A stretch of 63,903 nucleotides of DNA, filler included. It is 6 parts of 6 records of this genome, joined end to end, with 100 filler letters (N's around TTAATTAATTAA, not from the genome) between each part and the next. Parts side by side here need not be neighbours in the genome. Positions count along the whole stretch, not along the records: positions 1 to 11,959 come from DRR723986_6395; 5 more parts are not named here. One strand, written 5' to 3'. The translations under genes were made by a program, and so were the position numbers. Positions within the stretch are counted from its first letter, which is position 1, and each line of letters begins with the position of its first letter. The notes beneath the pieces were generated by a model. That model searched no databases, had not been told where the DNA came from, and was given only the letters and a program-made list of their open reading frames with translations. Below are positions 1 through 47,902 of the stretch, piece by piece.

Positions 1-30
1 GGTCGCAGGTTCGAATCCTGCCGTGGGTGC
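1..30 (+). tRNA. 3' part of tRNA-Arg(CCT) (attL; 5' part lies outside the contig)
   Basis: T-arm GCAGG-TTCGAAT-CCTGC followed by the acceptor 3' strand. Identity is inferred from the attR copy, which shows TTCCTAA. Confidence 0.75.
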
Positions 31-149
31 CTTTCAAAAACCTAGCGAATCGTTGGTTAAAACGATTACCTGGCCCATCGCCAGAGCGCACTTTTTCGAA
101 CCAGCAAAATGACAGACTGTCATTTTGCGAAGCGATTTGGAGCGCAATC

Positions 150-1385
150 ATGGCAAAGCGTCGGGGAATTCCTGGCTATCTGAAGCACTCAAGTGGCCAA
201 GCCAGAGTCTTGATCAACGGGAGGTCTTACTACCTAGGGAAGTATGGCAGCAAGGCCAGCAGGCAGCGGTACGACGCTCTCATTGCTGAGTGGTTAACAT
301 CCGGTCGAAGCCAAACGTTCGGCTTGGACGCTGGCAATCTAACTCTCGCCGACGTGATGGTCGGCTATCTCAAGCACTGCAAAGTTCACTACTCCGCGGG
401 GGTTGAATACAAGCACGTCAAGAGTGTTCTGCGCGTGGTCAACCAGCTGTACGCGACCGTCCTCGCGTGTGAATTTGGCCCCCAGCAATTCAAGGCAGTG
501 CGTCAGAAACTCATCGACGACCCTAAATGCCAATGGGCAAAACGTGACCTTAGGAAGACGGCGAAGCCGCTGTCACGGACCTACATTAACAGTCAGATGA
601 AACGTCTCACACGGATGTTTCGATGGTCGGCGGCGAATGGTGATGTTCCGCCTGATCTGTATCAGACCCTTAGGTTGATTCCGTCGCTGCAGCGTGGGCG
701 GACGGAGGCTCGAGAGGCCAAGAGCGTTGGGCCAGTCTCGATAGAAACGGTCCGAGCTACCCTTCCTTTTCTTCCGTCGGTGGTCGCGGACATGGTTCGG
801 CTTCACTACCTGGTGGCGGCCCGCCCGGCGGAGATCTGTGGCCTTACTCCAGAGATGATCGACCGAACTGGTGAGGTCTGGATCGCGAGGCTAAAGAATC
901 ACAAGACCGCGCGTCACGGGCGTGTTCGTGAGCTGCACTTCGGGCCAGCCGCTCAACAGATCCTCCGCCCTTATCTGGCAAGAGAACCAAACGCCAAGTT
1001 ATTCTCCCCCGTTGAATCTGAGGCGAATAGGCGTGCAGAGTTGTCTAAGGGACGGAAGACACCAGCGAACTGCGGGAATCGTCCAGGGTACTCAGAACGG
1101 GCTCGAGCTGGCCGTCCCGCAAAACGCCCGCCTGCCACGGAGTACAATCCTGGTAGCTACGCACGGGCTGTGCTGAGAGCAGCCAAGAAAGCAGGAGTCG
1201 AGCACTGGACACCCAACCAACTAAGACATGCTGGCGGGACACTGATCCGGTCACAGTACGGCTTAGAGCACTCACAAGCGATACTCGGGCATTCGAAGGC
1301 CGACATGACCGAACACTATGCAAAGGTCGATCAAGAGCGTGCGACTGAGGTAGCTAAGAACGATAGCGAACGACGAATAGACTGA
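150..1385 (+). CDS. int: Tyrosine recombinase/integrase
   Basis: Catalytic motifs AARPAE, NQLRH, LGHS and TEHYA; N-terminal arm-binding region (SSGQARV..YYLGKYGS); directly after the tRNA 3' end. ATG150 is preferred over the ORF start at 27. Confidence 0.95.
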   Translation: MAKRRGIPGYLKHSSGQARVLINGRSYYLGKYGSKASRQRYDALIAEWLTSGRSQTFGLDAGNLTLADVMVGYLKHCKVHYSAGVEYKHVKSVLRVVNQLYATVLACEFGPQQFKAVRQKLIDDPKCQWAKRDLRKTAKPLSRTYINSQMKRLTRMFRWSAANGDVPPDLYQTLRLIPSLQRGRTEAREAKSVGPVSIETVRATLPFLPSVVADMVRLHYLVAARPAEICGLTPEMIDRTGEVWIARLKNHKTARHGRVRELHFGPAAQQILRPYLAREPNAKLFSPVESEANRRAELSKGRKTPANCGNRPGYSERARAGRPAKRPPATEYNPGSYARAVLRAAKKAGVEHWTPNQLRHAGGTLIRSQYGLEHSQAILGHSKADMTEHYAKVDQERATEVAKNDSERRID

Positions 1386-1491
1386 TTAAATGTCGCCAGG
1401 GGCTTGATCACCCCGTGCTAGCCAGCCCGCGTTGTCCCGTAGCGACGCGGGTTTGGCTGACAGCGACATTCAAATCTACGGGAAAGAACAA

Positions 1492-2403
1492 ATGGAAGTG
1501 GTGATCGAGTCAACTAAGTTGATATCCGATGTCCAGCAGAGCAAACAGGTTGCGTGCTTACTGGAGGGCTACATTGAAATCATCGGAAACTACCTCGAAA
1601 TCGATGGAGAAGAGGATAACCGCAAGGAGCTTTTCCAGGAGTTCAATAAGAATTCTTCGGTGTTGTTCGGGCTACTGGGCGTGATTGCTAGGCGGACTTC
1701 ATACCTGTGGAACTTGAGAACAGGAGGCTTTGGCGAAGAGATTAAGGCTGCGGCCGGCCGACTTCCACCTGGGAAGCCAGAGTTCTTGCCGAGCGCTTTT
1801 CACTACCTTGTTCGGCAGTGCGTCGTGCTTCTGGAAGAATGTGAGAGTGCAACGCATGCACGAATCGACGGCGCAGATGACGAGCTCAGATTATTGGCAG
1901 AGCAAAAGGATATCGCACTTCAAGCTGAGTATTGGAACATCTTGAAGAACTCCGAGTGGCGAGAATTCGAATCCTGTGTGAAGCCAATGAGCCAAGTTAT
2001 TGAAGCAGTTAGCGCCAGCCTATGCAGCCCTCGAGAGACAATCGACAGAATTGAGGCTGAGGCTGCGAGGCTACCCGAAGACGAGAGTGAAGGGCCTGTT
2101 GCTCCTGGTAGCTGGAGAGGAAGTGATGGCAAAGTCCACTCCGGGATGAGGCCGATAGCTTGGAACCTTGCTGAATATCTTTGGAAAGCACGACGCAATT
2201 CGGCCACTATCGATGAGCTTGCTGCTCCATTGCTCGGCGACGCGGAGGAGTTTCTAGAAGAAAGCCAACTGAAGAACGCCCAGAGGACAGCAAACCAGTT
2301 TTTCAGAAGCTCCGGCCTGCCCATCCATATCGGCGTATCAACCACAAGCAACCCAACTCAGGCAACGCTAAAAAAGTTGGCGAGGTTTCGAAAAGAAACC
2401 TAA
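1492..2403 (+). CDS. Hypothetical protein with a C-terminal winged-helix-like region (possible regulator)
   Basis: Long ORF; the C-terminus (WNLAEYLWKARRNSATIDELA..LKNAQRTANQFF) resembles a wHTH. Start uncertain. Confidence 0.5.
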   Translation: MEVVIESTKLISDVQQSKQVACLLEGYIEIIGNYLEIDGEEDNRKELFQEFNKNSSVLFGLLGVIARRTSYLWNLRTGGFGEEIKAAAGRLPPGKPEFLPSAFHYLVRQCVVLLEECESATHARIDGADDELRLLAEQKDIALQAEYWNILKNSEWREFESCVKPMSQVIEAVSASLCSPRETIDRIEAEAARLPEDESEGPVAPGSWRGSDGKVHSGMRPIAWNLAEYLWKARRNSATIDELAAPLLGDAEEFLEESQLKNAQRTANQFFRSSGLPIHIGVSTTSNPTQATLKKLARFRKET

Positions 2404-2499
2404 AAGAAACCTAGACGAAACCTCCTGCTTGCAAGAATCCTTCGCAGTTAATGATTTCACGCCGCTTAGAAGGCACTCACTCGAACTCGGAGATTTGAC

Positions 2500-2751
2500 A
2501 TGCGAAGGAAGTTCATTCCAGTAGCTTCGGCAATTGAACAAGAGGCTGGATTACGCCCCTCACCGGCGACTCGCTGGCGATGGACAACCAAGGGAAGCGG
2601 TGGAGTCGTTCTTAAGACTTGGATGCTCGGCGGGAGACGAGTCACAACTCGTGAGGCTGTCCGTGAGTTCATCGAGCAACGAACGCGCGTCGCAACACCA
2701 AAACAAGCGAGGGACAACACACAGAAGGCACTAGCCGCAGAGCTGGCCTAA
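2500..2751 (+). CDS. DUF1580-like excisionase/HTH protein
   Basis: 83 aa with PSPATRWRWTTKG..LKTWMLGGRRVTTREAVREFI; GGAG RBS upstream. Confidence 0.8.
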   Translation: MRRKFIPVASAIEQEAGLRPSPATRWRWTTKGSGGVVLKTWMLGGRRVTTREAVREFIEQRTRVATPKQARDNTQKALAAELA

Positions 2752-2776
2752 GGAAGCAAAAAGGTGCCGAACCTCG

Positions 2777-3214
2777 ATGTGCGTCGAGGCTCGGCGATGG
2801 AAGATTGGGCAACCTTCAATCAGGATTCTACAAATGCACGAAGCGAGGGGCAAGCCGGAAGGCGATCGCCACACACCTGAGCAGTACAAGATTATCTCGG
2901 GGCGAATTTACAACCGGCGAAAGCAGATTCTTGGGGGGCAGGTGCCTAAAGGGGTGGATCAAGTTGATCCACCCATCGATTCGACCGCTGCCGAGGTGGC
3001 ATCAGAGCTTGGAATATCCCCTGGCACAGTCAAGCGTAATGGGCAGCGTGCCGAGGTACACGATGCGTTGCTTGAACAAGGCGACGTCGAAGCCGTTCTC
3101 GCGACTGCTAGGCGTCGTGCGGAGCTTAACTCGGCCCTCTTGCAGCTTGCCACGGTCGATGAGCGCCCTGCGGTTCTCCGGGCAATTCGTAGGTACAGCA
3201 AGGAGGCAATCTAA
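2777..3214 (+). CDS. HTH protein resembling the C-terminal part of phage ParB-like proteins (possibly truncated)
   Basis: TPEQ..GRIYNRRK and the HTH STAAEVASELGISPGTVKR; stop overlaps the next ATG (TAATG). Confidence 0.5.
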   Translation: MCVEARRWKIGQPSIRILQMHEARGKPEGDRHTPEQYKIISGRIYNRRKQILGGQVPKGVDQVDPPIDSTAAEVASELGISPGTVKRNGQRAEVHDALLEQGDVEAVLATARRRAELNSALLQLATVDERPAVLRAIRRYSKEAI

Positions 3215-3999
3215 TGGCCCGTATACGCACGATCAAACCTGAGTTCTGTACATCAGAGCAAATCGTCGAGTGCTCGGCGAGGGCTCGACTACTGTTCGTC
3301 ACCATGTGGTGCTTCTGCGACGATGCCGGTCGCCACCCAGCCAGCATCAAGCGACTCAAAATGGAGTGCTTTCCCGCAGACTCGCTCTCCGATGAGGACA
3401 TGAAAGCTCTAGTGGCGGAACTCTGCGACAACGACTTGCTTTCCGAATACGAACACGATGGGCAGCGATTCTGGCAGGTTACAGGTTGGCGAAAGCACCA
3501 GAAAATCGACCGCCCTACGTACAAACACGGCCCTTTCGAAGCAGACGGCAAGACCCCGAGGGCCCCCGAAATTCGTCGAACACTCGACGAGGCATCGACG
3601 AGCAATCAGCGAGCACTCGACGAGGCCTCACCCCCGGAAGGGAATGGAAGGGAGTCTAAGGGAATGGAGTCGAGTGGCATCGACGAAGAGTCGCCGAAGC
3701 CAACCAAGTCTAAACCGTCGAACGTACAGAAATCCCCTCCGTCTGTGGACCATGTTCGCCAGTACATGGCAGCCCAGAAATACCCAGACGATGCCGAAGC
3801 TTTCGTCGATCACTACACAGCCAATGGTTGGGTGCAGGGGCGTGGCAAACCAATCAAGGACTGGAAAGCCGCTGTACGCAACTGGCAACGAAACGACTTC
3901 CACCGGAAGCAAGCGAACGATGAGGCTGCACTACCACGCGCAGCCGACATCCAGAAAGAACCGCCCCGTGTTAAACCGAAAATGGAGCTTGCTCGATGA
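3214..3999 (+). CDS. Phage-type replication initiator (replisome organiser)
   Basis: N-terminus MARIRTIKPEF..ARLLF..WCFCDDAGR; C-terminus FVDHYTANGW..IKDWKAAVRNW; internal DNA repeats; followed by DnaB. Confidence 0.85.
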   Translation: MARIRTIKPEFCTSEQIVECSARARLLFVTMWCFCDDAGRHPASIKRLKMECFPADSLSDEDMKALVAELCDNDLLSEYEHDGQRFWQVTGWRKHQKIDRPTYKHGPFEADGKTPRAPEIRRTLDEASTSNQRALDEASPPEGNGRESKGMESSGIDEESPKPTKSKPSNVQKSPPSVDHVRQYMAAQKYPDDAEAFVDHYTANGWVQGRGKPIKDWKAAVRNWQRNDFHRKQANDEAALPRAADIQKEPPRVKPKMELAR

Positions 4000-5315
4000 C
4001 GGCTGAGAAAGACTACATCCAGCACACCAAGACTTGCGAAGAAGCTCTCATCGCTTGTGCATTGCTTGACCCGCAGCGCGCAGTTACCGAGGTACTCAGC
4101 ATCGTCATGCCAGAGGACTTTCGCGATGAAGACTTCGGGAACGTCTATCGAACGATCAGCGAATTGCACCAAGCAGGAATTCGCGCTGACAGCGACTCTG
4201 TGATCACGCAGCTTGCCAAGAAGGGTATCACGGCTGAGATCACCCCCGAGAAGCTCGGGCAAATTGTACAGCGACACACTGTGTCGAGTTCGCACACGAT
4301 TGACAATGCCGCGTACTACGCTGCCGAGGTTGCCCGGCTTGCGAGTCAACGTCGAGACATGGAGGTTGCTAAAAGTTTTCTATCACAGGAATTCCGGCTA
4401 GACCGCGATCGAACTAAGGAGCTGGAACGATTCGAGGCGGCGACAAAGGCTGAGCGACTAGCCGGCAGCGGCGACAGCGTGAAGATCTCCAAAGCCTTTT
4501 GTGATACAGCTGCGAGACACGCGTCCAGACCAAAGGATGAGGGGCCCGGTATTGCGACTGGCTTCCCCGACCTAGATTCAGCGATTGGCGGCGGACTGCA
4601 TAAAAGCACTTTGGTCTACTTAGGTGCTCGACTCGGGATAGGAAAGACAGCTCTGGCCCTCGCGATCGCTGCGTCAGTCACATCACGTGGGAAGAAAGTC
4701 TTGTTTTCGAGCTTGGAGATGACTGCGAATGAGCTTGCTGAACGCTTGGCGAGCGATCAGCTTGGAATCCCGTTTCGCCGTTTTAGCAACGGCGAACTTG
4801 AAACCGAAGACCTTGATGCAATAACGGCCTGTGCAAGCGAACTCGAAGACTGGGAACTTGAAATCGCCGACAGATCGAACCAGTCGATCGATTACATTCG
4901 TGCTCGGGCGTCCGTCATGGGCAACGTCGATTTGATTGTCATTGACAACCTGCAAATTCTTGCGCCAGTTGATGCTCGTGTTGAAAGGCGACACCAACTC
5001 ACCGCACTCGCGCAGAAGTGCAAGAGCCTCGCCAAGGATCTCGACTGTTGCGTGCTTCTCGTTGGACAACTGAATGCGGACGCGGAAGGAAGAGCCCCAA
5101 CGAAGCGAGATCTCTCCGAAGGTAAGCAAGTCCTTGAACCCGTACACACGGCCATGCTGCTGCATCGAGAGCGTGAAGGCGATGGCAGACTCTCGCGTCG
5201 CTTGGAGGTTCACGTCTCCAAGGCTCGAAGTGCAGAGGAGTGTGTTGTTGAACTGGATTTCGACGGCGCGTACCAACGAATCAGCGACCGCTCAGTCTGC
5301 TCAGAGCTTGGGTAG
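3996..5315 (+). CDS. dnaB: DnaB-like replicative helicase
   Basis: TGFPDLD, Walker A GARLGIGKT, SLEM, Walker B VIDNLQ, QLN and KAR motifs; ATGA overlap with the initiator. Confidence 0.92.
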   Translation: MTAEKDYIQHTKTCEEALIACALLDPQRAVTEVLSIVMPEDFRDEDFGNVYRTISELHQAGIRADSDSVITQLAKKGITAEITPEKLGQIVQRHTVSSSHTIDNAAYYAAEVARLASQRRDMEVAKSFLSQEFRLDRDRTKELERFEAATKAERLAGSGDSVKISKAFCDTAARHASRPKDEGPGIATGFPDLDSAIGGGLHKSTLVYLGARLGIGKTALALAIAASVTSRGKKVLFSSLEMTANELAERLASDQLGIPFRRFSNGELETEDLDAITACASELEDWELEIADRSNQSIDYIRARASVMGNVDLIVIDNLQILAPVDARVERRHQLTALAQKCKSLAKDLDCCVLLVGQLNADAEGRAPTKRDLSEGKQVLEPVHTAMLLHREREGDGRLSRRLEVHVSKARSAEECVVELDFDGAYQRISDRSVCSELG

Positions 5316-5324
5316 TTGGCATAG

Positions 5325-5999
5325 CTAGCCGACTCCTTGAAAGTACTCAAGAGTCGGGACTGCCTCGCAAAGGTCCTGAAACTCTTGCGAGCTCCGCCGA
5401 AGTGTTGACCTAAGCGACCTGAGTTTTCTGAGCGAATGCAAGGGCCGCAAGCCGCCCTTGTCGACCTTTACGCTGATGAGCCAAAGCATTTCCAGATATG
5501 CCAGCGAGGTGATAGGTGCAAGCGACTCCACCGCTATTTTGCGTCCCCTAACGGCTGATATGCCAAACTCCCTAAGGTTAGGAGTGCTCGTCAGAAAGCC
5601 GAGGTTCACTGGAGCTGCGACGTTCTCGATGAAAAGATACTCGAGCCCACTCAACGAAGCGATTGCGTTGAGGTCGGCTACTGACGGGGAACTTCCAAGA
5701 AACAGTGCCCTCAGATTCTTTGCGTTGCCAATTTCGCCTAGAGATTTCAGCGAGCTCCATTTGACGCTCAACGCTTCGAGTCGTGATGCATTTGCAGCCG
5801 CATCGAACAGCTCTTGCGATACCTTTGTCGAGAACATGATCGTGGTCGCGGGCACGCTAGGCAGAGCGTGAATCCACTTGTCGACTAACCGACGCTGGGC
5901 CGAAGCAGCAAGGCCCGTTTGCGTACACGCTATGTTGAGCACTTCTGATCCGTCGTAGTCTTCAACATTTTCTAATGCCGCTGGTATCTCACCTGACAT
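5325..5999 (-). CDS. Leucine-rich-repeat-like protein (cargo)
   Basis: Repeated LxxLxL units (LEALSV, LRALFL, LEYLFI, LREFGI, LEMLWL, LRSLRS). Start uncertain (5999 or up to 6050). Confidence 0.65.
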   Translation of the reverse strand: MSGEIPAALENVEDYDGSEVLNIACTQTGLAASAQRRLVDKWIHALPSVPATTIMFSTKVSQELFDAAANASRLEALSVKWSSLKSLGEIGNAKNLRALFLGSSPSVADLNAIASLSGLEYLFIENVAAPVNLGFLTSTPNLREFGISAVRGRKIAVESLAPITSLAYLEMLWLISVKVDKGGLRPLHSLRKLRSLRSTLRRSSQEFQDLCEAVPTLEYFQGVG

Positions 6000-6349
6000 C
6001 TGTCGAGCAGGCCAGTATCCGTAACGAAGTCTATCGGTGTCCGAATGCAACGTAAGCTCCCCAAGGTGGTAACGAGCTACAAAGCAGTAAAGCCTAATAG
6101 CTGCAACTTGTGATTACAAACAATGCGACGTTAGAGCCAGCGGGTCCTCATCAGCAGAACAACGAGATGCCCTCAACGGGAACAGTCCCTAATTACCACA
6201 ATCTTTCTTTATTTACTAGCTTACCTAAGCTTACACCTGCTTGATCTTCTGCATTTATATTCGCACTTCGGATTACTCGTTTGAACTTTCTCGAATCGAC
6301 GCGATCATGGTGTTCATAGCTGACACAATCGTGAACCAGGAGCCGTGCG

Positions 6350-6574
6350 ATGCAAAACATCGATAACCCAGACCGACTGATGAAAGTTGGGCCTACGTAC
6401 GAGCTTGTGACAGGCCACCCCGAACCCTCGAAGCAGACGCGATCAGCATGGGTCAGGAAAGGTCGGGGCGGGAGGCGGCTTTTGGTTACACGGTTGTGCG
6501 ATGGACTTTACACGACTCCGCGGCGGATGGCGGAGTTTTTGCAACTTGACCTTGTTCTGGAAGGCAGAAGATGA
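6350..6574 (+). CDS. Second, divergent DUF1580-like HTH protein
   Basis: PSKQTRSAWVRKGRGG..YTTPRRMAEFL aligns with the 2500-2751 protein; AGGAG RBS. Confidence 0.6.
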   Translation: MQNIDNPDRLMKVGPTYELVTGHPEPSKQTRSAWVRKGRGGRRLLVTRLCDGLYTTPRRMAEFLQLDLVLEGRR

Positions 6575-7008
6575 ACCTGATCAACAAACTAGCGGCGAAA
6601 GTGGCAAAACAGAAGGCTTCAGCAGAGGAGAGGCTTGCTGGTCTTCGAGCTGACTTCATCCAGGCGGCTTACTATGAGTCGTCGGGCGAAGACGCTTCAG
6701 ATCTCTCGCGAGCTGTGGAGGATGCGATTTCGGAAGGAGCGGTGTCTTCAGCGGAAATCGCCGAAATTCAACAAGCTGCATCGAAGCGGTACGAGCTGGA
6801 ATGTCGGGTGGCGAAAGAGCGGGAACTGCAGAAAGCTCGCCAAGAAACCGAACAGGATTTCGTTTCAATGACTAAGCGACACCGTGAGGAGCGCGAAGCA
6901 CTCTCCACCAAGCGGCACTTGGCTAAGACCGCCTACGCGAGCTGCCAGGAGTCGAAACAGCGCCTCCAGGATCTTGCGGGCGAGTTTCCAGAGCTTTTCG
7001 CGTTCTAG
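6571..7008 (+). CDS. Hypothetical coiled-coil protein
   Basis: 145 aa, rich in E/K/R/A and helical; ATGA coupling to the upstream gene. Confidence 0.7.
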   Translation: MNLINKLAAKVAKQKASAEERLAGLRADFIQAAYYESSGEDASDLSRAVEDAISEGAVSSAEIAEIQQAASKRYELECRVAKERELQKARQETEQDFVSMTKRHREEREALSTKRHLAKTAYASCQESKQRLQDLAGEFPELFAF

Positions 7009-7053
7009 GTCCGCAACATTCACGTTCCCTCCTGATCACCGAAAGTTAGACCG

Positions 7054-7359
7054 ATGAGTTCTCCCCAATTCGCGAGCTTGTTCCGGCGTGCCGGCAGCGC
7101 AGCCCAAGAACCAAAGCAAACCGACACCAACCAGCCTTCCACTCAATTCGCGAGCTTGTTTCGACGGGCCGGCAGCGCAGCTGGAAAGCCAAAGGCCCCG
7201 ATGCAGAACAGCACCAACAAGCTGTCGGGCATCGGTTCATCTGGGGCTGACACTGCAAGCGATGTTAACTTCAACAAGGTGCCAGATTCTCTTCAGTTTT
7301 CGAGCCTGTTTCGACAGGCAACGAACCCTGGCCGCCAGCTGGATTTCACCGCACGCTGA
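7054..7359 (+). CDS. Small protein with three QF(A/S)SLFR(R/Q)A repeats
   Basis: Repeats 1 and 2 differ only at synonymous third positions over 13 codons. Confidence 0.7.
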   Translation: MSSPQFASLFRRAGSAAQEPKQTDTNQPSTQFASLFRRAGSAAGKPKAPMQNSTNKLSGIGSSGADTASDVNFNKVPDSLQFSSLFRQATNPGRQLDFTAR

Positions 7360-7370
7360 GCAAAGCTTGC

Positions 7371-7424
7371 CGGAGCGGCTCGGGTCTGTATCGCCTTCCA
7401 TCGGGCTCGGGCTAGCTCCGTTTT
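7371..7424 (+). terminator. G-U-rich 18-bp hairpin followed by TTTT, upstream of the tape-measure gene
   Basis: 7371-7388 pairs with 7402-7420 (one bulged A, five G-U pairs), then T4. Confidence 0.5.
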
Positions 7425-7457
7425 GACACAAAACTTCAGAACACACGGTTGAGACAA

Positions 7458-9416
7458 ATGGCTAAACGAAAATTCGGCGAAGCTCAAGTCGAGGTGTCGA
7501 TTCGTGATCGTGTCGGCCAAGGACTCAAGGCGATAGAGCATCGCTTGAAGGCCTTTGCCATGCGGATGCGTGCGATCGGAGGAAGCATTGCTGGAGTCGG
7601 AACGATTGCTACCGGCGCATTTGGCGGAGTTGGCGCGGCTCTGCTCGGGGCGTCGAGCAAATTTGGAACTTTCGGCGATCAGATCCAGAAGACTTCGGCT
7701 CGGCTGAACACCAGTGCCAAGTTCTTGACCGGTCTCAAGTTTGCCGCTGAGCAGTCTGGTTCTAGCCTTGAGTCAGTCGCTAATGCGATGTTCAGAGCGA
7801 ATCGCCGGATTGCGAACGCTACGAAGGGCACAGGTCCCGCCGTGCGTGCGTTGAACGACCTCGGCCTCTCAGCAGACCAACTAAACAACCTGAGCACTGA
7901 GGACCGCTTCTTGGCGATCAGCGACGCTCTGGCGAATATGCAGAACGAGACGCTGGCCGCCCAATATGGGTTCGAGATCTTCGGTGACAACTTCCGCGAC
8001 ATCAAGCCTTTGATCGATGAAGGCTCGGACGGGATCCGCCAACTCACAAGCGAAGCTGAATCACTGGGGCTAACCCTCGGTGATAACGACGCCAACGGGG
8101 CGGCTGCATACGCGGACGCTATGAACCGAATGAAGCAATCCGTGACCGGAGCCGTTGTTCAGATAGGTGCAGCCCTTGCCCCCGCGATCAAATCAGCGGC
8201 GGCTATCTTCACTCGAGTCACCACTAGAGTGAGTCTTTTCATTCGGAAGAATCGGGGGCTTGTAGTCGCTGTCGGAGCGGCGACAGCGGTAGCGTTCACT
8301 TTCGGTGCCGCCTTAGCGGCAGCAGGTGTAACCATCGCGGGTGTAGGAGTGGCGGTTGGCGTGTTCGGGTCGGTCGTCAGTGCGGTTGGCGCAGCCCTCG
8401 CAGTCGTTGCAAAACCTTTGGCGATCGTTGCCGCTGCAGTTGGAGGGCTCGGCGGTGCAGCCCTATATGCTTCGGGCGGCTTCGCGAAACTAGGCAAAAT
8501 GTTCCTGTCTATCCGTGACACCGCAGTTCACGCGTGGAGTGGAATCACAGCAGCTCTGGCCAGCGGCGACTTGGCGATTGCCGGTGAAATTGGTTTTACG
8601 GCACTCAAGATTGCCTGGTTGAAAACGACCAATGACATGAAACAGGTGTACTTCGATGCTATCAACTACATCAAAGACATCTTCCTGGACCTGGGAGAAG
8701 GCACGATCCATTTGGGAGCGAACATCTACTTTGGCGTCGCCAAGTATTTTGACAAGCTCGCGAACTCTTTACTGACTGGATTCGACACCGCATTCACTTA
8801 CATTCGCGGCGGCATCGATCGAATTCAGACTTCGATATCGAAAGCGATAATTTCAGCGGGGCGATTCTTCGGTATGTTCTCGAAGGATGAAGCCGCTCAA
8901 GTTCAGTCCTCACTCGACGCCAACCTGGAGCGAAGAGCAGAGGAACGGGAGAAGGGACTTGGGCGGCGAATTGGCTCACTCGGACAAGAACTCTACCTTC
9001 GCGACCAGCAGAGGAAGAGCCAGGCTTCTGATTTCACTTCGGATACGATTAACCTGTTCAATGACCAGAAGCGACAACGGGCAGGGCCCGACCAGGAAGG
9101 CGTCGTGGCGGCCCAGGAGGAACTGGCAAGGCTCAACGCCAAACTAGCTTCTACGGTGCAGAAAGCTCGCCAGGATGCTGTCTCGGCTGCCAAGCTTCCC
9201 GGAGCGGGTGATCAGGGATTCGATCTTGCGGCGGTGTTTGGTGCTCAAGCTCAATCGCAAATAAAAGCTCGGGGGACAAGCAGTGCTGCTGCCGTCGCCG
9301 CCGGTGCGCTCGATATTGGTCGAAGCGATGACAAGATGCGAAAGCTAGTTGTGAACACCGACAAAAACAACAGGCTGATGCTTCGATTGATCAATAAGAG
9401 AGGTGGTTTTCGGTAA
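7458..9416 (+). CDS. Phage tail tape-measure-like protein (652 aa)
   Basis: A/G-rich helical protein; TMP-like core (GLKFAAEQSG, ALNDLGLSA, EIFG, PLIDEGSDGIRQLTSEAESLG); central hydrophobic stretch. Confidence 0.8.
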   Translation: MAKRKFGEAQVEVSIRDRVGQGLKAIEHRLKAFAMRMRAIGGSIAGVGTIATGAFGGVGAALLGASSKFGTFGDQIQKTSARLNTSAKFLTGLKFAAEQSGSSLESVANAMFRANRRIANATKGTGPAVRALNDLGLSADQLNNLSTEDRFLAISDALANMQNETLAAQYGFEIFGDNFRDIKPLIDEGSDGIRQLTSEAESLGLTLGDNDANGAAAYADAMNRMKQSVTGAVVQIGAALAPAIKSAAAIFTRVTTRVSLFIRKNRGLVVAVGAATAVAFTFGAALAAAGVTIAGVGVAVGVFGSVVSAVGAALAVVAKPLAIVAAAVGGLGGAALYASGGFAKLGKMFLSIRDTAVHAWSGITAALASGDLAIAGEIGFTALKIAWLKTTNDMKQVYFDAINYIKDIFLDLGEGTIHLGANIYFGVAKYFDKLANSLLTGFDTAFTYIRGGIDRIQTSISKAIISAGRFFGMFSKDEAAQVQSSLDANLERRAEEREKGLGRRIGSLGQELYLRDQQRKSQASDFTSDTINLFNDQKRQRAGPDQEGVVAAQEELARLNAKLASTVQKARQDAVSAAKLPGAGDQGFDLAAVFGAQAQSQIKARGTSSAAAVAAGALDIGRSDDKMRKLVVNTDKNNRLMLRLINKRGGFR

Positions 9417-9569
9417 AGATCAAGGCTCTTGCGGCCCGCGAATCTCTGTTTTCCACAAGAGGCCTCGTTCACAGCTCCAGCTTTTCCTGCAGTCCTTGCG
9501 AGGCTCACTGGCTCTAGTTCGGAAACTACTTAAAATGGAACGGCCCCACCTTCCAAAAGTAGTAGGCCC

Positions 9570-9890
9570 ATGCCTGGTCCAGAACCGTCCACCTATCAAG
9601 AAATCGTTGAAAGCCTAAGCGGCTCGCTGGACCTTGCTTTGTCGGGTTATTCGACGATTGAGGAACTGGACGCCTCTAACCGCATGAGCCATCTGAACGG
9701 TGACATCGACGACGAAGACTTCAATAGTGTTCGCGAAGTGGAGAAGCAGCTTGCCGATGTTTGGCTGAAGGCGGCAAAGGCGCTTCTGTTGGTCGTTCAC
9801 ATGGAACGATTGTTCGAAGGCGACTCAAGAGTCGCAGAGCTCGAAAAGCGAGTCGGGCTACTTCGAAGCCAACTGAAGAACTTGCATTAG
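9570..9890 (+). CDS. Hypothetical protein
   Basis: 106-aa ORF with ATG start filling the intergenic space. Confidence 0.5.
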   Translation: MPGPEPSTYQEIVESLSGSLDLALSGYSTIEELDASNRMSHLNGDIDDEDFNSVREVEKQLADVWLKAAKALLLVVHMERLFEGDSRVAELEKRVGLLRSQLKNLH

Positions 9891-9953
9891 CTCTATTCCC
9901 CCAGAAGTGCACGACGGCCAGTTCTAAAGCCGGGCGCTCCAGAATGGGTTTTG

Positions 9954-10199
9954 CTACTTTTCCTCGGCTCCTTTAGGACCTTGGGTTGCAACGCAGTGTC
10001 CATCTGCATATTCGAGTTCTTCGATGTACTCATCTAGTTCAGAGCGGCGATACTTCGGTCTCGCTGACAAGTAATGCACCACGCTTTTGATCTTTCCAGC
10101 GGCTTTGAGGTTGGATAGCTCGCTTGGCGAGATCCCCAAATACTCCGCCGCGTCTTCACGGCTCATTACTGCTGGCCAACGTTCAGACATTTCCATCAC
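9954..10199 (-). CDS. Excisionase-like HTH (HTH_17 type)
   Basis: MSREDAAEYLGIS..PKYRRSELDEYIE pattern. Confidence 0.75.
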   Translation of the reverse strand: MMEMSERWPAVMSREDAAEYLGISPSELSNLKAAGKIKSVVHYLSARPKYRRSELDEYIEELEYADGHCVATQGPKGAEEK

Positions 10200-10261
10200 C
10201 TCGCTCTGTTGGTTTGATACAATTCGCCAATTACGAAATCTACCACAAGCAAGGAAGCCTC

Positions 10262-10504
10262 ATGTCCCCTGCCGCCAAAGAACCAGACCAGTCCACATAT
10301 TCCGGTAGATTCGCCGCGAGGCTGAGGATGCTCAGAGAGAAGGCGGGGCTGAGCGTGGATGAGGTGGTGGCCAGTGCGGGAGTAGCCGCCAGAACGTACT
10401 ATGGCTGGGAAAATGGTTCGCGACAGCCTCCTTTTGACATCCTGCCAAAGCTAGCTGCCGCCCTAAAAGTTAAAACCCCGCGCACGTTAATGCCTACGGA
10501 GTAA
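10262..10504 (+). CDS. XRE-family HTH repressor
   Basis: RLRMLREKAGLS..YYGWENGSRQP..LAAALKV; ATG10262 follows AGGAAG. Confidence 0.88.
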   Translation: MSPAAKEPDQSTYSGRFAARLRMLREKAGLSVDEVVASAGVAARTYYGWENGSRQPPFDILPKLAAALKVKTPRTLMPTE

Positions 10505-10505
10505 T

Positions 10506-10557
10506 TTGCTCAAATTGAGCGAAGGGATATTGCTCAATTTGAGCGAGGCGTTACAAT
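10506..10557 (+). promoter_or_regulatory. Twin palindromic operators overlapping a sigma70-like promoter
   Basis: GCTCAAATTGAGC (10508-10520) and GCTCAATTTGAGC (10532-10544); -35 TTGCTC at 10530, -10 TACAAT at 10552, 16-bp spacer. Confidence 0.7.
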
Positions 10558-10592
10558 CGCTACCGTCACGTCGAAACAACCCAAATCATCTA

Positions 10593-10648
10593 AGCCCTGT
10601 TCGCTTCGCTGCGACGTGACAATTACAGCGAGGTGCCCAGGGTTTTTT
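10593..10648 (+). terminator. Leader terminator/attenuator hairpin
   Basis: AGCCCTG..TTCGCTG pairs with CAGCGAG..CAGGGTT and runs into the T-tract 10643-10648. Confidence 0.6.
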
Positions 10649-10732
10649 CGTGCCCTGATTCACCTCAGCGCATAAAAATGGCCCCGCAAGTGCGGCAACA
10701 CTTCGGAGCCCGGTTCTCAATTGGAGTGAACG

Positions 10733-11725
10733 ATGTCCATTGTTACAGCTGAACAGCCAGTCGTCAATGAAGTTGAAGACCAAATCTTCCGACGGCGGGC
10801 CCGTTGGGCACTTCGCAGAATGCTTGTGCTGATTGATGAGCTTGCTGTGAGTACGCGTTGGCTGTCGGTTAACGAAATCACGCAGGCCGTGAACGAGCGG
10901 CTCGGCGTCTCCTACATACCTAGAACATATGAACGAGACTTGTTCCTGCTTGAATCAGAGGAGCTTGTCGAGTCGCGTTCTGAGTGTCCATTTGGCCGCT
11001 TCTCGCGGACTCAAGTGCGAACTTGGCGACTACTCAAAGAGCGTTCCGAGGGGCTTCAGGAAGCCGCAATCAAGCTCGATGAGTCACTGGCCCCTGTAGA
11101 AGCCCAAGAGCCACTGTACGCGATTCTGATTCGCGACGAGAACGGCTGGCAAGTGTCGGATCACGATTCGATAAGCTTCCGAGACTTGCAAGGGCTAGTT
11201 GCTCAACTGGATGGCGAGTGGGCGATTGTTCCCTGCGACAGGATTGGAGAGTTTCTGCCTGATGAAGAACCCACGAGGGCTGCCTACGATGAAGCCGTGT
11301 TGTGGAAAGACAAGGTGGAAAGCATCGTCGATAGCTACGAATATGCCGAGATGGCGGTTCCGCGTACTCTTCGCGACGAACTCAATCGAGCTAGTGAGTC
11401 GAGCAGCAGGCTGCACGCCGAGTGGCGTTACCACAACCAGGAAGTTCCCGCGTACTTCTTAGAGTACAGGCCAAGCGAGAGTGAGCAACGGACGTTTCTT
11501 CCGCTGGAGCTCACAGATATGCGGCATGCGTTCTCACTGCTGGCCACAGCAGTCCATAGACGAGGGCACGTCCCTGTCATCTACAGGCTACCGGTCTCTG
11601 CCAAAGCGATCCGGCAGGGTCAAGTCATCTCTTTTGGCGAATGGCGGGGGGTGGCATACGACCACCTCATCAAGCGGGAACAAGAGCGTGAGGAGTACTG
11701 CCCCAGGTGCAAAGAACTCGCATAG
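10733..11725 (+). CDS. Hypothetical protein with an N-terminal winged HTH
   Basis: 330 aa; WLSVNEITQAVNERLGVSYIPRTYERDLFLL resembles a wHTH; GGAG RBS. Confidence 0.6.
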   Translation: MSIVTAEQPVVNEVEDQIFRRRARWALRRMLVLIDELAVSTRWLSVNEITQAVNERLGVSYIPRTYERDLFLLESEELVESRSECPFGRFSRTQVRTWRLLKERSEGLQEAAIKLDESLAPVEAQEPLYAILIRDENGWQVSDHDSISFRDLQGLVAQLDGEWAIVPCDRIGEFLPDEEPTRAAYDEAVLWKDKVESIVDSYEYAEMAVPRTLRDELNRASESSSRLHAEWRYHNQEVPAYFLEYRPSESEQRTFLPLELTDMRHAFSLLATAVHRRGHVPVIYRLPVSAKAIRQGQVISFGEWRGVAYDHLIKREQEREEYCPRCKELA

Positions 11726-11930
11726 CCACACGGCGATCACCCCCGGAAATTTGCACCGGTGCAACTTTGTTCTCAGTAAACTGACAAACTGTCATCTCAT
11801 ACTTCTCGGACTGTCACCACCCTGTTCAAAAAAGCGAAAAAACATGCAATACTCTGAAATGATATTGGGACGCCCAAAAGGGTGGTTTTTACAGGGGAAA
11901 AGTGCGTTTTCACCGGTGCTTTGGGGCATT

Positions 11931-11959
11931 TTCCTAAAGCTAAGGTCGCAGGTTCGAAT
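11931..11959 (+). repeat. attR: duplicated tRNA 3' half starting at the anticodon loop
   Basis: TTCCTAAAGCTAAGGTCGCAGGTTCGAAT contains the CCT anticodon loop and the start of the T-arm. No tRNA 5' half lies upstream. Confidence 0.8.
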
Positions 11960-12059
11960 NNNNNNNNNNNNNNNNNNNNNNNNNNNNNNNNNNNNNNNNN
12001 NNNTTAATTAATTAANNNNNNNNNNNNNNNNNNNNNNNNNNNNNNNNNNNNNNNNNNNN
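11960..12059. other. Artificial contig linker (also at 28500-28599, 37932-38031, 44051-44150 and 58631-58730)
   Basis: N-run + TTAATTAATTAA (stops in all six frames) + N-run, the same five times. Confidence 0.98.
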
Positions 12060-18502: not shown

Positions 18503-19621
18503 TCAGTTAAGTAATGGGCGCGACATGCGTTCTCGCGCGCTGTTCAAAACCCTCGAAACTGTCCGAAGATCGACTCTCCGACCGTCGCGCAGAAGACCCC
18601 CAATGACGCGCTCGCAGGCTTCAACGACGTCCCCCTCGAGACCGAGCGAAGCTCCCTCAGAGCGACAGAACGCTAGGACCTGCGCGCGGGTCAGCTCTTC
18701 CAGCCGGACAACGGTAAGGCGGGAGCGCAGCGCCGGCGGAACGCCGTGCAGGCTGTTCGACGTGAAGATCCATGAAACCCCGGAAAGATCAAACTTCAGG
18801 CCGAAATACGGACAGACCCAAGCGCGCGCAGTGGTCCGCTCGAGCATGCCGAGGAGGACTGAGTGCAGACCGCTCATGCTTGATCCGGACGCTGTCGCGA
18901 TGCGCTCTGATCCGGCGTCAAGCTCATCAACGATCGCGAGAGGGTTCGCGATGTGACTCGAGAGAATGCCGCTCACGACGCGGCCCGGCGAGCCATTACT
19001 CCATCTATGATCGCTCCCCTGCAGCTCAAAGACGCCTCCGGTCGCCGAGGCGTCGACTTCGATCTCCGGAAGTCCGGCGAGCTCTGCGAGACGTCGGGCC
19101 CACGACGACTTCCCGAGGCCCGGCGGCCCCAGGGCGACGATCGGATCGAAGCCGAGCGAGCGTCCATCAGACGTTCGTCGTTTTGTTAATCTCCAGACGG
19201 CTTCCGTCAGACGCTGGAGCCAGGGAAACTCCGTATGTAGCTGCGCGAAAATCTCGTCGACATCATCCAAACTCGCACAGACCGCGCGCGAGTTCCGCGC
19301 GAGCTCGAGAAGGTCTCCCTTGGCTTCTTTCGAGAGCTTCGGCGGCAACGGCGTCTGTGGCTTTCTCAGTTTCGCGACAACATGCGCGACATGAAGCAGC
19401 CTACGGCGCTGTTTTTCATCAAGGAATTCAAGGAAAACTGGATAATCTTGGACGGAGACGCCGAGGCGAACTGCGCTCTGAACGCGGTGCCACGCCATCG
19501 CATCAGGCAAGACACGCGCTTGACGCTTCGCGATGATCCGCCGCTCGACTGCGTCCGCGATCTCACGCGCGCTCAGCTCATGCACAATGAGCTCGACAAC
19601 TTTTTCCCGACGGTAATCCAC
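18503..19621 (-). CDS. AAA+ ATPase (Lon-like ATPase domain, no protease domain)
   Basis: Walker A GPPGLGKS, Walker B IVDELD, WIFTSN and ALRSRL. Confidence 0.85.
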   Translation of the reverse strand: MDYRREKVVELIVHELSAREIADAVERRIIAKRQARVLPDAMAWHRVQSAVRLGVSVQDYPVFLEFLDEKQRRRLLHVAHVVAKLRKPQTPLPPKLSKEAKGDLLELARNSRAVCASLDDVDEIFAQLHTEFPWLQRLTEAVWRLTKRRTSDGRSLGFDPIVALGPPGLGKSSWARRLAELAGLPEIEVDASATGGVFELQGSDHRWSNGSPGRVVSGILSSHIANPLAIVDELDAGSERIATASGSSMSGLHSVLLGMLERTTARAWVCPYFGLKFDLSGVSWIFTSNSLHGVPPALRSRLTVVRLEELTRAQVLAFCRSEGASLGLEGDVVEACERVIGGLLRDGRRVDLRTVSRVLNSARERMSRPLLN

Positions 19622-28499: not shown

Positions 28500-28599
28500 N
28501 NNNNNNNNNNNNNNNNNNNNNNNNNNNNNNNNNNNNNNNNNNNTTAATTAATTAANNNNNNNNNNNNNNNNNNNNNNNNNNNNNNNNNNNNNNNNNNNN

Positions 28600-37931: not shown

Positions 37932-38031
37932 NNNNNNNNNNNNNNNNNNNNNNNNNNNNNNNNNNNNNNNNNNNNTTAATTAATTAANNNNNNNNNNNNN
38001 NNNNNNNNNNNNNNNNNNNNNNNNNNNNNNN

Positions 38032-44050: not shown

Positions 44051-44150
44051 NNNNNNNNNNNNNNNNNNNNNNNNNNNNNNNNNNNNNNNNNNNNTTAATT
44101 AATTAANNNNNNNNNNNNNNNNNNNNNNNNNNNNNNNNNNNNNNNNNNNN

Positions 44151-44279
44151 AATGGGTTTCTGCGGGTTGCCTTCCAGCATATCTTCGGTGATTGCATCAA
44201 TTTTGCTTTGGTCAAACTCAGCCCTGCGGGCGGTTGTGACATATATTTCTGCGATTTTGACCGGTATTACTTTGAGCAT
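44151..44279 (-). CDS. Small ParB-N-like protein (3' truncated)
   Basis: MLKVIPVKIAEIYV..KIDAITEDMLEGNPQKPI; AGGA RBS. Confidence 0.5.
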
Positions 44280-44315
44280 TTTTTATCCTGTTGTTTGTGC
44301 ACTGTTGCTTTGTGC

Positions 44316-45056
44316 CTAAAATTCTTTCAACACAAGGCGGTAGCCGATGTCGAGGGTGTCTTTCTCTAACAAGTGGCCGTATTTTTCCGCCCACACCCCT
44401 GAACGCAGCTCTTCCTGCAATGTTGCTAACGGTTCTGAAATAGTATTCAGCTTAGCGAAAGTGGAAATGGCTGCGCGAACCAGGGGGTTCAAATAGGCCT
44501 GCGGCCGTCGCCAATAGGCCCCGAGAAAACCATCTGTGCAGTCATGCGGCACAGGAATGGTGGTGATGGTGACTTTTCCCAGAATGCGCTCAAACTCAGT
44601 GAGTTTGGGCATGATGGGTTGGTCCAGCTCAACAATTTCGGGCAAATAGTCCGCCAGCCAAAAATAGGGCGCGGTTGGGTCGAACGTCAAAATAACAAGG
44701 CGTTTTTTTGCCACGCGTTGCATCTCCCGCAGGCCCGCTTCAAAGTTTGACCAGTGATGCACTGTGAGAATCGCCATGGCGGCTTCGAACTGGTTGTCGT
44801 CAAAAGGCATATTTTCGGCGGTGCCCTCAATAACCTTGGCGGCACCCGCTGGGCGCTGGCGGATCATTTCAATGGAAGGCTCCAGCGCCGTTAGGGCTCT
44901 GTCTGTTGGTTCATAAGACCCGGTTCCCGCGCCAACATTGACAACAGATTTGGTATTCCCAAGCGCGCCGTTGATGGCCTGCGCGATACGGGGATCGGGC
45001 TTGCGCAGGTTGGCATAGCCAACACCGATGGTGTTATAAAGCTGCTTCATGGTCAT
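44316..45056 (-). CDS. Class I SAM methyltransferase
   Basis: VNVGAGTG, AENMPF and TVHHW. Confidence 0.9.
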   Translation of the reverse strand: MTMKQLYNTIGVGYANLRKPDPRIAQAINGALGNTKSVVNVGAGTGSYEPTDRALTALEPSIEMIRQRPAGAAKVIEGTAENMPFDDNQFEAAMAILTVHHWSNFEAGLREMQRVAKKRLVILTFDPTAPYFWLADYLPEIVELDQPIMPKLTEFERILGKVTITTIPVPHDCTDGFLGAYWRRPQAYLNPLVRAAISTFAKLNTISEPLATLQEELRSGVWAEKYGHLLEKDTLDIGYRLVLKEF

Positions 45057-45222
45057 AGATTAACGCTTTGGTTTGATGCAGGCCAGTAGTTTCATTATGT
45101 GCTTTCGGTGGTTGTTTTGCAGGATGGTGAACACTGGCTCTCAAAACTGTGGCACCCAGAAACATTTATTATTTCATCGACAAAATATTGCCCTTAATGC
45201 TGTGGCTTAGTATCGTTTTGCA

Positions 45223-46326
45223 ATGAGTGATGCGGTAACAGCAGTGAATGACGACCAAAAGACACGCAGTAGTGTGATAAAAAGCAGTGCAATGCTGCTG
45301 TTATGCGCTGTTGTGCTGGCGGGTTGTTCGCTTGGCCGTACATCGCCGGCAGACATAAAGCCGGTGTTTCGGGTGCTGAACTCGCCGCTACCGGTGCCCA
45401 GCCCGCGCTGGAACCCACGCAGGCAATATGCCAATGCTGCTACAACCATTAGCGCGCGGGCCAACACGCGGGTGCGCTCTGTGGGTAAGCCTGCACTGAT
45501 AAAGCCAACCATTCCAAAGGCCCAAACGCCTGTCTCGGGCAGGGTTATCACGGTCAGCAGAGGCGACACGCTATATTCCCTAGCGCGAAAAAACGGTGTG
45601 CCGGTGCGCAGCATGGTTGCGGCAAATGGCTTACGCGCGCCCTATACGCTGGCAATTGGCCAAAAGCTGCAGGTGCCTGTTGCGTTGCAACATACGGTGC
45701 GTAAGGGCGAAACCGGTTACGGTATTTCACGGCGTTACGGCGTGAATATTACGGCGCTGATGCGTGAGAACGGTATCCGCAAGCCCTACCGTTTATCTGT
45801 AGGGCAAGTGCTGACCTTGCCAGGGGGGGCACAGCCAGCTGCTTCAAGCGCGCGGCAAACTGCTTCGGCCAGCACCCCCAAGCCCGCTGCACGTGGAAGG
45901 GTGGTGCCAACACCAGCGCCCCCCGCGCGCAGCAGTAGCGGGTTTAGTTGGCCCGTAGACGGCAAGCTGGCGTCGCGTTTTGGCCCCAAAGAAGGGGGGC
46001 TGCATAATGATGGTATCAATATTCTTGCTAAACAGGGTACGCCGGTGCGCTCGGCGGAATCAGGCGTTGTGGTTTATGCTTCCAATGCCCTTGAAGGCTA
46101 CGGCAATTTGCTTTTGCTGAAACATGCGGATGGCTGGCTAACCGCTTATGCCCATAATGAGCGATTGCTGGTGAACAAAGGCGATAAAATTACAAAAGGG
46201 CAGGTGATTGCCCGGGTGGGCTCAACTGGCGGGGTTTCAGATCCGCAGCTGCATTTCGAAATTCGCAAGGGCAGGCGGGCGCTAGACCCGTTAGATTACT
46301 TGCGTGGCAGCGTTGCCGCACGGTAA
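45223..46326 (+). CDS. nlpD: LysM/M23 lipoprotein (NlpD-like)
   Basis: Lipobox LAGC, two LysM domains and M23 motifs HNDGINI, YAH and QLHFEIR. Confidence 0.88.
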   Translation: MSDAVTAVNDDQKTRSSVIKSSAMLLLCAVVLAGCSLGRTSPADIKPVFRVLNSPLPVPSPRWNPRRQYANAATTISARANTRVRSVGKPALIKPTIPKAQTPVSGRVITVSRGDTLYSLARKNGVPVRSMVAANGLRAPYTLAIGQKLQVPVALQHTVRKGETGYGISRRYGVNITALMRENGIRKPYRLSVGQVLTLPGGAQPAASSARQTASASTPKPAARGRVVPTPAPPARSSSGFSWPVDGKLASRFGPKEGGLHNDGINILAKQGTPVRSAESGVVVYASNALEGYGNLLLLKHADGWLTAYAHNERLLVNKGDKITKGQVIARVGSTGGVSDPQLHFEIRKGRRALDPLDYLRGSVAAR

Positions 46327-46477
46327 CGGGTATTGACTATGCGGGGCGATTGGCGCCTGCGACCTATACTGTAAGCCTTATTTTTCTAAACATTTTCTGA
46401 AATTGCGTTTGGCAAGCCTGTGCGTACCCTCCATGATGCATAGCAGATTGGGAAAACACCGGTATAGGGAGTTTTGT

Positions 46478-47883: not shown

Positions 47884-47902
47884 AAAATTACCAGAATAAG
47901 GG

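Follow-up and report, generated by a model that had tools for sequence, protein, structure and literature searches.

The DNA analysed here, referred to below as the window, is a stretch of 63,903 nucleotides composed of six contigs with five spacers between them (each N44 + TTAATTAATTAA + N44; positions 11960-12059, 28500-28599, 37932-38031, 44051-44150 and 58631-58730), such that features close to a spacer lie at contig ends and not in continuous DNA. The subject of this report is the whole of the first contig, positions 1-11959, which encodes a tyrosine integrase, a phage-type replication module and an intact tail tape-measure protein (TMP), the only virion protein that can be recognised in it. 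On balance we lean towards reading this contig as a single, self-contained mobile element (about 11.9 kb) whose host belongs to the Planctomycetota, a phage satellite that would put its own TMP into the tails of a helper phage. The features that bear most directly on this reading are as follows.

Positions 1..31, plus strand: 3' part of a tRNA gene (T arm, acceptor 3' strand and discriminator), from sequence reading; presumed right part of an att core, with 1-16 repeated at the other end of the contig.
Positions 150..1385, plus strand: tyrosine integrase (PF00589, 2.1e-13; phrog_1, 3.8e-25); the reading frame is open from GTG 27, and ATG 150 fits the relatives.
Positions 2500..2751, plus strand: DUF1580 protein (PF07618, 5.1e-20).
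Positions 3214..3999, plus strand: phage-type replication initiator (phrog_1408, 3.5e-33).
Positions 3996..5315, plus strand: DnaB-family replicative helicase (PF03796, 3.2e-48; PF00772, 1.5e-12; phrog_19, 3.2e-66).
Positions 7449..9416, plus strand: tail tape-measure protein, intact, 655 aa (phrog_9483, 8.7e-34); start at TTG 7449, with ATG 7458 fitting the relatives.
Positions 10124..10504, plus strand: XRE/Cro-CI-type helix-turn-helix regulator (PF13560, HTH_31, 5e-12; PF01381, 2.4e-10; phrog_2328, 4.7e-10).
Positions 11932..11959, plus strand: presumed left part of the att core, with U33, anticodon CCT, 3' anticodon stem, variable loop, T stem and T loop in register.

Scans of the 16 open reading frames (ORFs) of the contig against Pfam and PHROGs confirm the genes named in an earlier account made from the letters alone (hereafter the sequence-only reading), namely the integrase, the DUF1580 protein, the initiator with DnaB, the XRE regulator and the uninterrupted 655-aa TMP. 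They also uphold its statement that no capsid, portal, terminase, tail-tube or lysis gene is recognisable, and baseplate families likewise find no match among the 16 ORFs. NCBIfam returns nothing beyond DnaB, the integrase and generic helix-turn-helix models, and with Pfam, PHROGs and NCBIfam together no conjugation, relaxase or partition gene is found in the 16 ORFs. PADLOC reports no known defence system (only generic helix-turn-helix matches and three marginal ones at E 3e-4 or weaker). In common with satellites generally, the unit of 11,943 bp has its own integrase, initiator and DnaB, its discreteness being seen directly only in the sibling elements described below, and it has no complete-virion gene set in its 16 ORFs, eight of which are without a family match.

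The strings ARPAE, LRHAG, LGHS and EHYAK occur in the integrase at residues 265, 399, 420 and 429, and we take these to hold the catalytic Arg, Arg, His and Tyr. Relatives of the initiator are present at 26 IMG/VR loci, with DnaB adjacent in 23 of them and this TMP in none, and the initiator-DnaB pair is a standard phage module. Within the initiator gene lie two copies of a 20-nt repeat (3577-3596 and 3610-3629), 33 nt apart, where none would be expected by chance. These are possible origin iterons, whose location inside an initiator gene would presumably be comparable to that in lambda O.

Of the 15 PHROG families matched by the protein encoded at 7449-9416, 12 carry a TMP annotation (the best match, 8.7e-34, spans residues 24-318, and another, 6.2e-33, spans residues 19-492), and the profile of its family matches the solved TMP of 80alpha (6v8i) at 9.5e-08; neither Pfam PF10145 nor any NCBIfam TMP model matches it. 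A glycine/alanine-rich hydrophobic segment occupies its centre, at about residues 236-342. There are 125 homologues at E <=0.001, mostly of 600-690 aa and at best 51% identical, the relatives P0001 and P0002 standing at 48-51% identity. P0001 is encoded on a contig of 12,898 nt, and a further relative, P0006, on one of 12,254 nt. Among the 401 Planctomycetota genomes sampled, 41 contain relatives of this TMP, as do at least 438 IMG/VR stretches. Clustering of 1,503 ORFs from 98 loci gives the gene order of the family, that is, TerL, portal, a protease-capsid fusion, connector-sized proteins, the major tail protein, the TMP and a set of conserved distal genes, and the cluster representatives match PHROGs accordingly (capsid/protease 6.7e-83, portal 4.6e-62, TerL 1.1e-32, major tail protein 2.3e-10). 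The TMP thus belongs to a tail-module family of siphovirus-like phages of Planctomycetota. Phage-cluster neighbours are present beside 105 of the 129 TMPs in the tree set described below, whereas the window TMP has none.

The isolation of this gene from the rest of its usual module is seen from both directions. When 15 proteins of the element were compared by tblastn with 110 related loci, the TMP was matched in 109 and no other protein in any, and a repeat of the search on 16 genome regions again matched the TMP alone. The closest TMP with a known context, at locus L001, is 45% identical over 570 residues; it adjoins a distal-tail cluster and a terminase, and nothing else at that locus is common to the element. 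Conversely, tblastn with 31 cluster families detects no relic of a head or tail gene in the element, and hhalign comparison of nine ORFs without a firm family (six without a match, two with weak matches and an overlapping frame at 9403-9618) with 10 tail and connector clusters gives probabilities of at most 1.9%. The cluster found at the chaperone position of the phage modules likewise aligns with the small ORFs at 6350-7359 with a probability of no more than 1.9%, a weak test since single sequences were compared.

The arrangement is not confined to the window. Relatives of the integrase are present in 60 of the 401 Planctomycetota genomes (none was found in IMG/VR by the method used), and at all five loci that were fetched a tRNA gene (Val, Pro, Arg-CCG, Met and Met) is immediately followed, on its 3' side, by the integrase gene, with 45-nt repeats running from tRNA position 33 to the 3' end at two of the five. 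Cross-referencing of integrase and TMP matches, together with a scan for flanking repeats, identified three complete sibling elements.

L171 (genome G211): 45-nt tRNA-Val repeat, positions 33-77; unit of 11,732 bp; integrase, O-like initiator and 630-aa TMP.
L172 (genome G068): 45-nt tRNA-Pro repeat, positions 33-77; unit of 15,120 bp; integrase, DUF1580, primase, DnaB-like helicase, RuvC and 590-aa TMP.
L208 (genome G156): 43-nt repeat, 5' half of tRNA-Arg(TCT); unit of 16,575 bp; a different tyrosine integrase, initiator, DnaB, 559-aa TMP and endonuclease.

The three siblings sit inside longer contigs of 16 kb to 3.3 Mb. For capsid, portal, TerL and tail tube, neither the clusters nor PHROGs match an ORF in any of them (10 ORFs per element were scanned against PHROGs and the remainder searched by BLAST). 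A neck/tail-completion-like protein (phrog_5, 1e-21) is encoded immediately upstream of the TMP in L172; apart from this, the siblings and the window element all lack any other recognisable virion gene. The siblings are bounded by tRNA repeats, as the window element presumably is. All three sibling genomes additionally hold a TMP in phage context (L173; L144 and L145; L192). Since three siblings are bounded by tRNA repeats and all three genomes hold such a phage-context TMP, the layout is a recurring class and probably not a decayed prophage. The class proposed in the sequence-only reading, with integrase, replication genes and TMP and without detectable capsid or terminase, therefore exists in Planctomycetota; its use of an initiator with DnaB as a defining contrast does not hold, because L172 relies on a primase and a DnaB-like helicase. 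The L208 element is bounded at 2430-2507 and 19040-19082, and its 527-aa integrase is transcribed away from the tRNA; the 5'-half core is a geometry different from the 3'-half cores of the other elements.

The same integrase family looks as though it also serves a larger prophage, as at L173 the integrase lies at tRNA-Arg(CCG) with tail-module genes including a TMP about 15 kb away and no att repeat within the 20 kb covered. Ten further TMP loci without recognisable phage neighbours were set aside and not counted as elements (L002 and L214 being one locus). No integrase is present at any of them, a neck-like gene lies near the TMP in four, and no flanking repeats were found in the seven that were scanned (L151, L191, L194, L196, L201, L202 and L002; L211 and L212 were not scanned). 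These loci may be divergent phages. At L002/L214 (G002:C9, about 217-225 kb) a 758-aa TMP is 36% identical to that of the window, or 48% over the best tblastn segment of 262 residues; a DnaB-like helicase and an O-like initiator precede it and an HNH endonuclease follows, with neither a phage cluster nor a flanking repeat. This locus may be another member of the class with undefined ends.

In a FastTree phylogeny of 129 TMPs, those of the elements fall at three separate places with local supports of 0.82-1.0, two of them inside clades with phage-context TMPs. The window TMP is joined first by P0001 and P0002 (support 1.0) and next by L001, a TMP in phage context (0.82); the L171 TMP belongs to a clade of six leaves in which all other members are in phage context (0.92); and the L172 and L208 TMPs are sisters (1.0) in a divergent clade. 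The three separate positions suggest that TMPs were captured repeatedly from local phage lineages. Aligned with the phage TMPs resident in the same genomes, the element TMPs are 26-43% identical over 179-310 residues; for comparison, the TMPs of the Vibrio satellite PLE11 and of its phage ICP1 are reported to be 20% identical (PMC12987554). The elements are mosaics of an integrase family common to apparent full-size prophages, a phage replication module and a locally derived TMP. In a single 85,891-nt IMG/VR contig two TMP homologues (L069 and L078) occur about 23 kb apart, and this pair could reflect tandem prophages or misassembly.

The ends of the window element require a more cautious treatment. 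Positions 1-16 are exactly repeated at 11944-11959, with a spacing of 11,943 and no longer terminal overlap. The sequence-only reading regarded this as a direct repeat at the two ends of a complete, integrated element. The repeat and its spacing stand, but as the stretch is a whole, stand-alone contig, the repeat is the overlap of the contig's own two ends; a chromosomal flank, an intact tRNA gene and attB are all missing from 1-11959, and completeness and integration are thus not seen. The 12 nt that precede the right-hand copy can be read in register as U33 and an anticodon, CCT, followed by the 3' strand of the anticodon stem and one base, the first, of the variable loop. From these partial pieces at the contig ends, we infer that the target is tRNA-Arg(CCT), the tRNA pieces proposed earlier being present at both ends and their assignment to Arg depending on the CCT register. 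A search with ARAGORN, both of the contig itself and of the junction made by joining its ends, detects no whole tRNA, which rules out a circle with an intact tRNA gene. It follows that the 5' half of the tRNA has given way to sequence of the element, the state in which an attP or attR site would be found. The contig may stem from an integrated copy, from an excised circle or from an assembly broken at the repeat.

Support for an att reading of the window copy comes from the siblings, as the 45-nt cores of L171 and L172 start at the anticodon loop (tRNA position 33), where the right end of the window element turns tRNA-like. The att structure, integration and completeness of the window copy are presumed. 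Uniform GC (0.535-0.55) along the contig, with nearly all genes on one strand, is a further feature of this DNA. Contigs from other organisms diverge from its tRNA end at positions 22, 35 and 74. The left-end 31-mer, with at most one mismatch, has a single match in the 401 Planctomycetota genomes (in G312), which is a partial tRNA-like piece and not attB, so that the exact host is not among the genomes sampled. This piece lies in the last 60 bases of L215 (G312:C2), 10 bases from the end of the locus, and extends from a TCT anticodon loop to the 3' end without the 5' half, resembling the attR of another such element. The sole public run in which the element was detected contains it at about 2x as contigs of 151-259 nt, with 6% of the sampled words and six perfect pieces of 151-247 nt that include no joints.

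The host is probably a member of the Planctomycetota, an assignment that draws on the distribution of DUF1580 and on the integrase and TMP relatives common in this phylum (60 and 41 of 401 genomes, respectively). DUF1580 is present in five of five Planctomycetota genomes and in none of 14 control genomes, several copies lie 1-3 kb from relatives of the integrase (L172, L174; G002:C39, G068:C2), and the closest relatives are named as Planctomycetota metagenome-assembled genomes (MAGs) by their sources. The planctomycete host put forward from the letters alone is therefore reasonable. Given its position, the DUF1580 protein may be an excisionase or a regulator partner of this integrase family. 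The remaining contigs (12060-63903) have no match to clusters 0-30 or to the element proteins, and no helper was found in the window; with no relative of the element or of phage modules, they provide no host evidence. Those of 44151-63903, the last two, appear from their translations to encode ordinary housekeeping proteins (SecD, an aminotransferase, homoserine dehydrogenase, RecJ, a TolC-like protein and a LysM/M23 peptidase), and may stem from an organism other than that of the element.

The other genes of the element are as follows.

Positions 1432..2403, plus strand: 323-aa protein, predicted mostly helical, no family match.
Positions 2777..3214, plus strand: 145-aa protein with a weak sigma-70 region-4-like helix-turn-helix (PF08281, 9.3e-05, below the cut-off; phrog_3282, 8.4e-04).
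Positions 5325..6050, minus strand: 241-aa leucine-rich-repeat-like accessory protein, the sole large minus-strand gene (PF23598, 2.7e-05, 23.5 bits against a cut-off of 40).
Positions 6350-6574, 6571-7008 and 7054-7359, plus strand: three small ORFs upstream of the TMP, no family matches.
Positions 9570..9890, plus strand: 106-aa protein, no Pfam, PHROG or PADLOC match.
Positions 10733..11725, plus strand: 330-aa protein with a conserved N-terminal half; two homologues only, one in a source-named Aureliella MAG.

For the 323-aa protein nothing was found in Pfam, PHROG, PADLOC, NCBIfam or PDB, nor any homologue among 8,000 scored candidates, and its AF2 model (pLDDT 39.9) is too poor for a fold search. 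The same is true of the model of the 330-aa protein (pLDDT 46.7), for which ESM Atlas leads score below 0.8 and a winged-helix fold in the N-terminal half is only a lead; the ESM Atlas search gave only unnamed clusters or scores under 0.8. PDB sequence searches with four ORFs of no known function and with the TMP alone produced nothing meaningful. The three small ORFs occupy the position usual for tail chaperones, with no similarity detected. In the last of them, of 101 aa, a 58-nt repeat of 81% identity (7059-7116 and 7137-7194) gives rise to a thrice-repeated peptide motif, and a further ORF (7088-7426) overlaps it in another frame. Promoter and terminator scans performed no better than on shuffled sequence (6 against 4.5 and 15 against 13.1).

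If the contig is a satellite of the kind suggested above, its tyrosine integrase would act on a tRNA gene, at the 3' half that begins with the anticodon loop, while the phage-type initiator and DnaB would allow autonomous replication and the helix-turn-helix proteins would act as regulators. As a helper phage of the local siphovirus-like lineage grows, the element would excise and replicate, and helper capsids and proteins would package its DNA. Its TMP would then replace the helper TMP in the tails that carry the element, giving chimeric tails as in the PLEs of Vibrio, and the yield of the helper may drop. Helper dependence, packaging and incorporation of the element TMP into tails are in this scheme drawn by analogy. 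The proposal of the sequence-only reading, that the element hijacks or jams a helper phage at tail assembly, is likewise conjectural.

A number of observations weigh against such an interpretation. Neither a helper, a particle nor an excision junction was seen for the window copy, and nothing among the pieces from the public run spans the contig ends, so that they carry no junction information. The absence of virion genes holds within the reach of the tools, as eight of the 16 ORFs have no family match, and a divergent capsid or scaffold gene could lie among these. Searches revealed neither a terminase small subunit nor a pac or cos site, and blastn against 215 loci yielded matches to the TMP coding region and to the tRNA end alone, with no shared cos or pac. 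No tail assembly chaperone or baseplate hub is recognised beside the TMP, and PLEs carry both. Finally, the genome census of the TMP covered three scored candidates per genome and about 10-14 kb on each side of the TMP.

The same gene content might instead describe a defence island, in which the TMP or a partner acts as a decoy that poisons the tail assembly of infecting phages of the local lineage and protects the host population, and is not needed for transfer of the element. Mobile elements often carry defence genes, interference with tail assembly has been published for the Tai systems (PMC11364771) and for Rta of PLE11 (PMC12987554), and a TMP that has diverged to 26-43% identity from those of co-resident phages is what a dominant-negative subunit might look like. 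We nevertheless consider this unlikely, in that PADLOC finds no known defence family, the TMPs of all four elements are full-length and intact (559-655 aa), as would suit a structural protein, and, in the PLE system, the TMP serves the satellite's own transfer and a separate protein interferes (PMC12987554). A still less probable origin is decay of a temperate phage of 40 kb to a remnant in which the TMP was kept by chance. All recognisable modules are indeed phage-derived, the same integrase family is found at the apparent larger prophage L173, and an initiator paired with DnaB is usual in phages (23 of 26 viral loci). Such decay would, however, need a minimum of two deletions, which would have to remove DNA to either side of the TMP and spare its ORF, and four elements, each at a different tRNA site, show this same result; the 43-45-nt repeats of the three flanked copies are perfect. 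Moreover, neither tblastn with the 31 cluster families nor hhalign finds a head or tail relic and, as the sequence-only reading had remarked, the little non-coding DNA leaves scarce room for decayed genes.

An integrative plasmid-like element that has no helper, and whose TMP-like protein performs a non-virion task such as that of a membrane channel or a cell-envelope function, appears equally improbable. It would account for the element's own replication and integration genes, for the long hydrophobic segment of the TMP and for the failure to find a packaging signal or gene, but it is at odds with the absence of any conjugation, relaxase or partition gene among the 16 ORFs, the nesting of the window and L171 TMPs among phage-context TMPs, the neck/tail-completion gene that L172 retains beside its TMP, and the prophage of the same TMP family carried by all three sibling genomes. 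Lastly, both ends of the contig lie in a 16-nt stretch common to many tRNAs, and contigs of other organisms diverge at positions 22, 35 and 74, as might be the case if a chimeric contig had been joined through the conserved T arm and the 11.9-kb unit were not one molecule. This we regard as highly improbable because GC is uniform (0.535-0.55) and nearly all genes share one strand, the layout and size match three elements embedded in contigs of 16 kb to 3.3 Mb, and the ends would in any event mark a boundary rather than an internal join.

If the contig is indeed a satellite, its relatives raise a wider proposal, possible though distinctly doubtful at present: that Planctomycetota hold lineage-spanning minimalist satellites whose sole tool for exploiting helpers is a repeatedly captured TMP, with no gene for capsid remodelling or packaging. 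Were this true, exchange of the protein that serves as tail ruler and DNA conduit would suffice to make a helper-built particle serve the satellite. The TMP might then mark the tails that join satellite-filled heads, or might give satellite DNA access to cells in which a resident helper prophage prevents entry by way of the helper TMP. Confirmation of the satellite reading would show that phages and their parasites come into conflict repeatedly over the tail ruler protein, and would supply satellite finders with a signature of integrase, replication genes and TMP, without capsid or terminase, in less than 20 kb.

Full-text literature searches, their results judged by title and abstract, turned up no paper on phage satellites in Planctomycetota. 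The PICIs, cf-PICIs and P4-like satellites are elements of 10-17 kb, bounded by att sites, with a terminal integrase, their own replication genes, a regulator and a helper-dependent particle. The window element resembles them in its size, integrase at one end, own replication and regulator and, presumably, in att-bounded integration and in dependence on a helper for the particle. It differs in that Pfam and PHROGs reveal no terminase small subunit, no capsid-size or capsid-forming genes, no Psu or Sid and no primase-helicase fusion, in its use of an initiator with DnaB, and in having a tail gene as its sole recognised virion gene. The EPIPs of Mycolicibacterium aichiense are likewise small satellites with a TMP, which they carry together with several head and packaging genes and which is suspected of altering helper tails (PMC12822802). 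Their set comprises a serine integrase, a terminase small subunit, adaptor, stopper and scaffold/capsid genes and the TMP (PMC12822802), whereas the integrase of the window element is a tyrosine recombinase and, of the EPIP genes listed in that source, only the TMP is common to both (PMC12822802).

The closest parallel is with the PLEs. Functional satellite-encoded TMPs were first shown in 2025-26, in the single system of Vibrio PLEs with phage ICP1 (PMC12987554). According to that report, PLE virions contain the TMP and hub of the PLE and exclude those of ICP1, and their tails are 10 nm shorter (PMC12987554); deletion of tmp lowers PLE transduction by 96-99.9% (PMC12987554). Satellite TMPs that build chimeric tails have been published for all PLEs (PMC12987554), and the legend of Extended Data Fig. 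10 adds putative tmp genes in PLE-like elements and cf-PICIs (PMC12987554). With these and the EPIPs on record, the novelty is lower than the sequence-only reading had supposed. Like PLE1, PLE4 and PLE11 of Vibrio cholerae, the window element would be a small integrative satellite with a diverged TMP of its own and with most tail genes absent (PMC12987554). In PLEs the tmp gene is accompanied by genes for a tail chaperone and a baseplate hub (PMC12987554), neither of which is recognised in the element; PLE helpers are contractile-tailed, whereas the helper lineage proposed here would be siphovirus-like, and the host phylum differs. The likeness is one of gene content and proposed mechanism, and membership of the PLEs is not claimed. 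PLEs also differ from the element in their capsid-remodelling genes and in integrase type. By their defining genes, the element lies outside the PLE, PICI, cf-PICI, P4 and EPIP families. Judged by analogy, it most likely works like the PLE case in a barer form, the TMP gene being the sole virion gene recognised in the window copy, which would suggest that a strategy of the Vibrio PLEs is also at work, stripped down, in a distant phylum.

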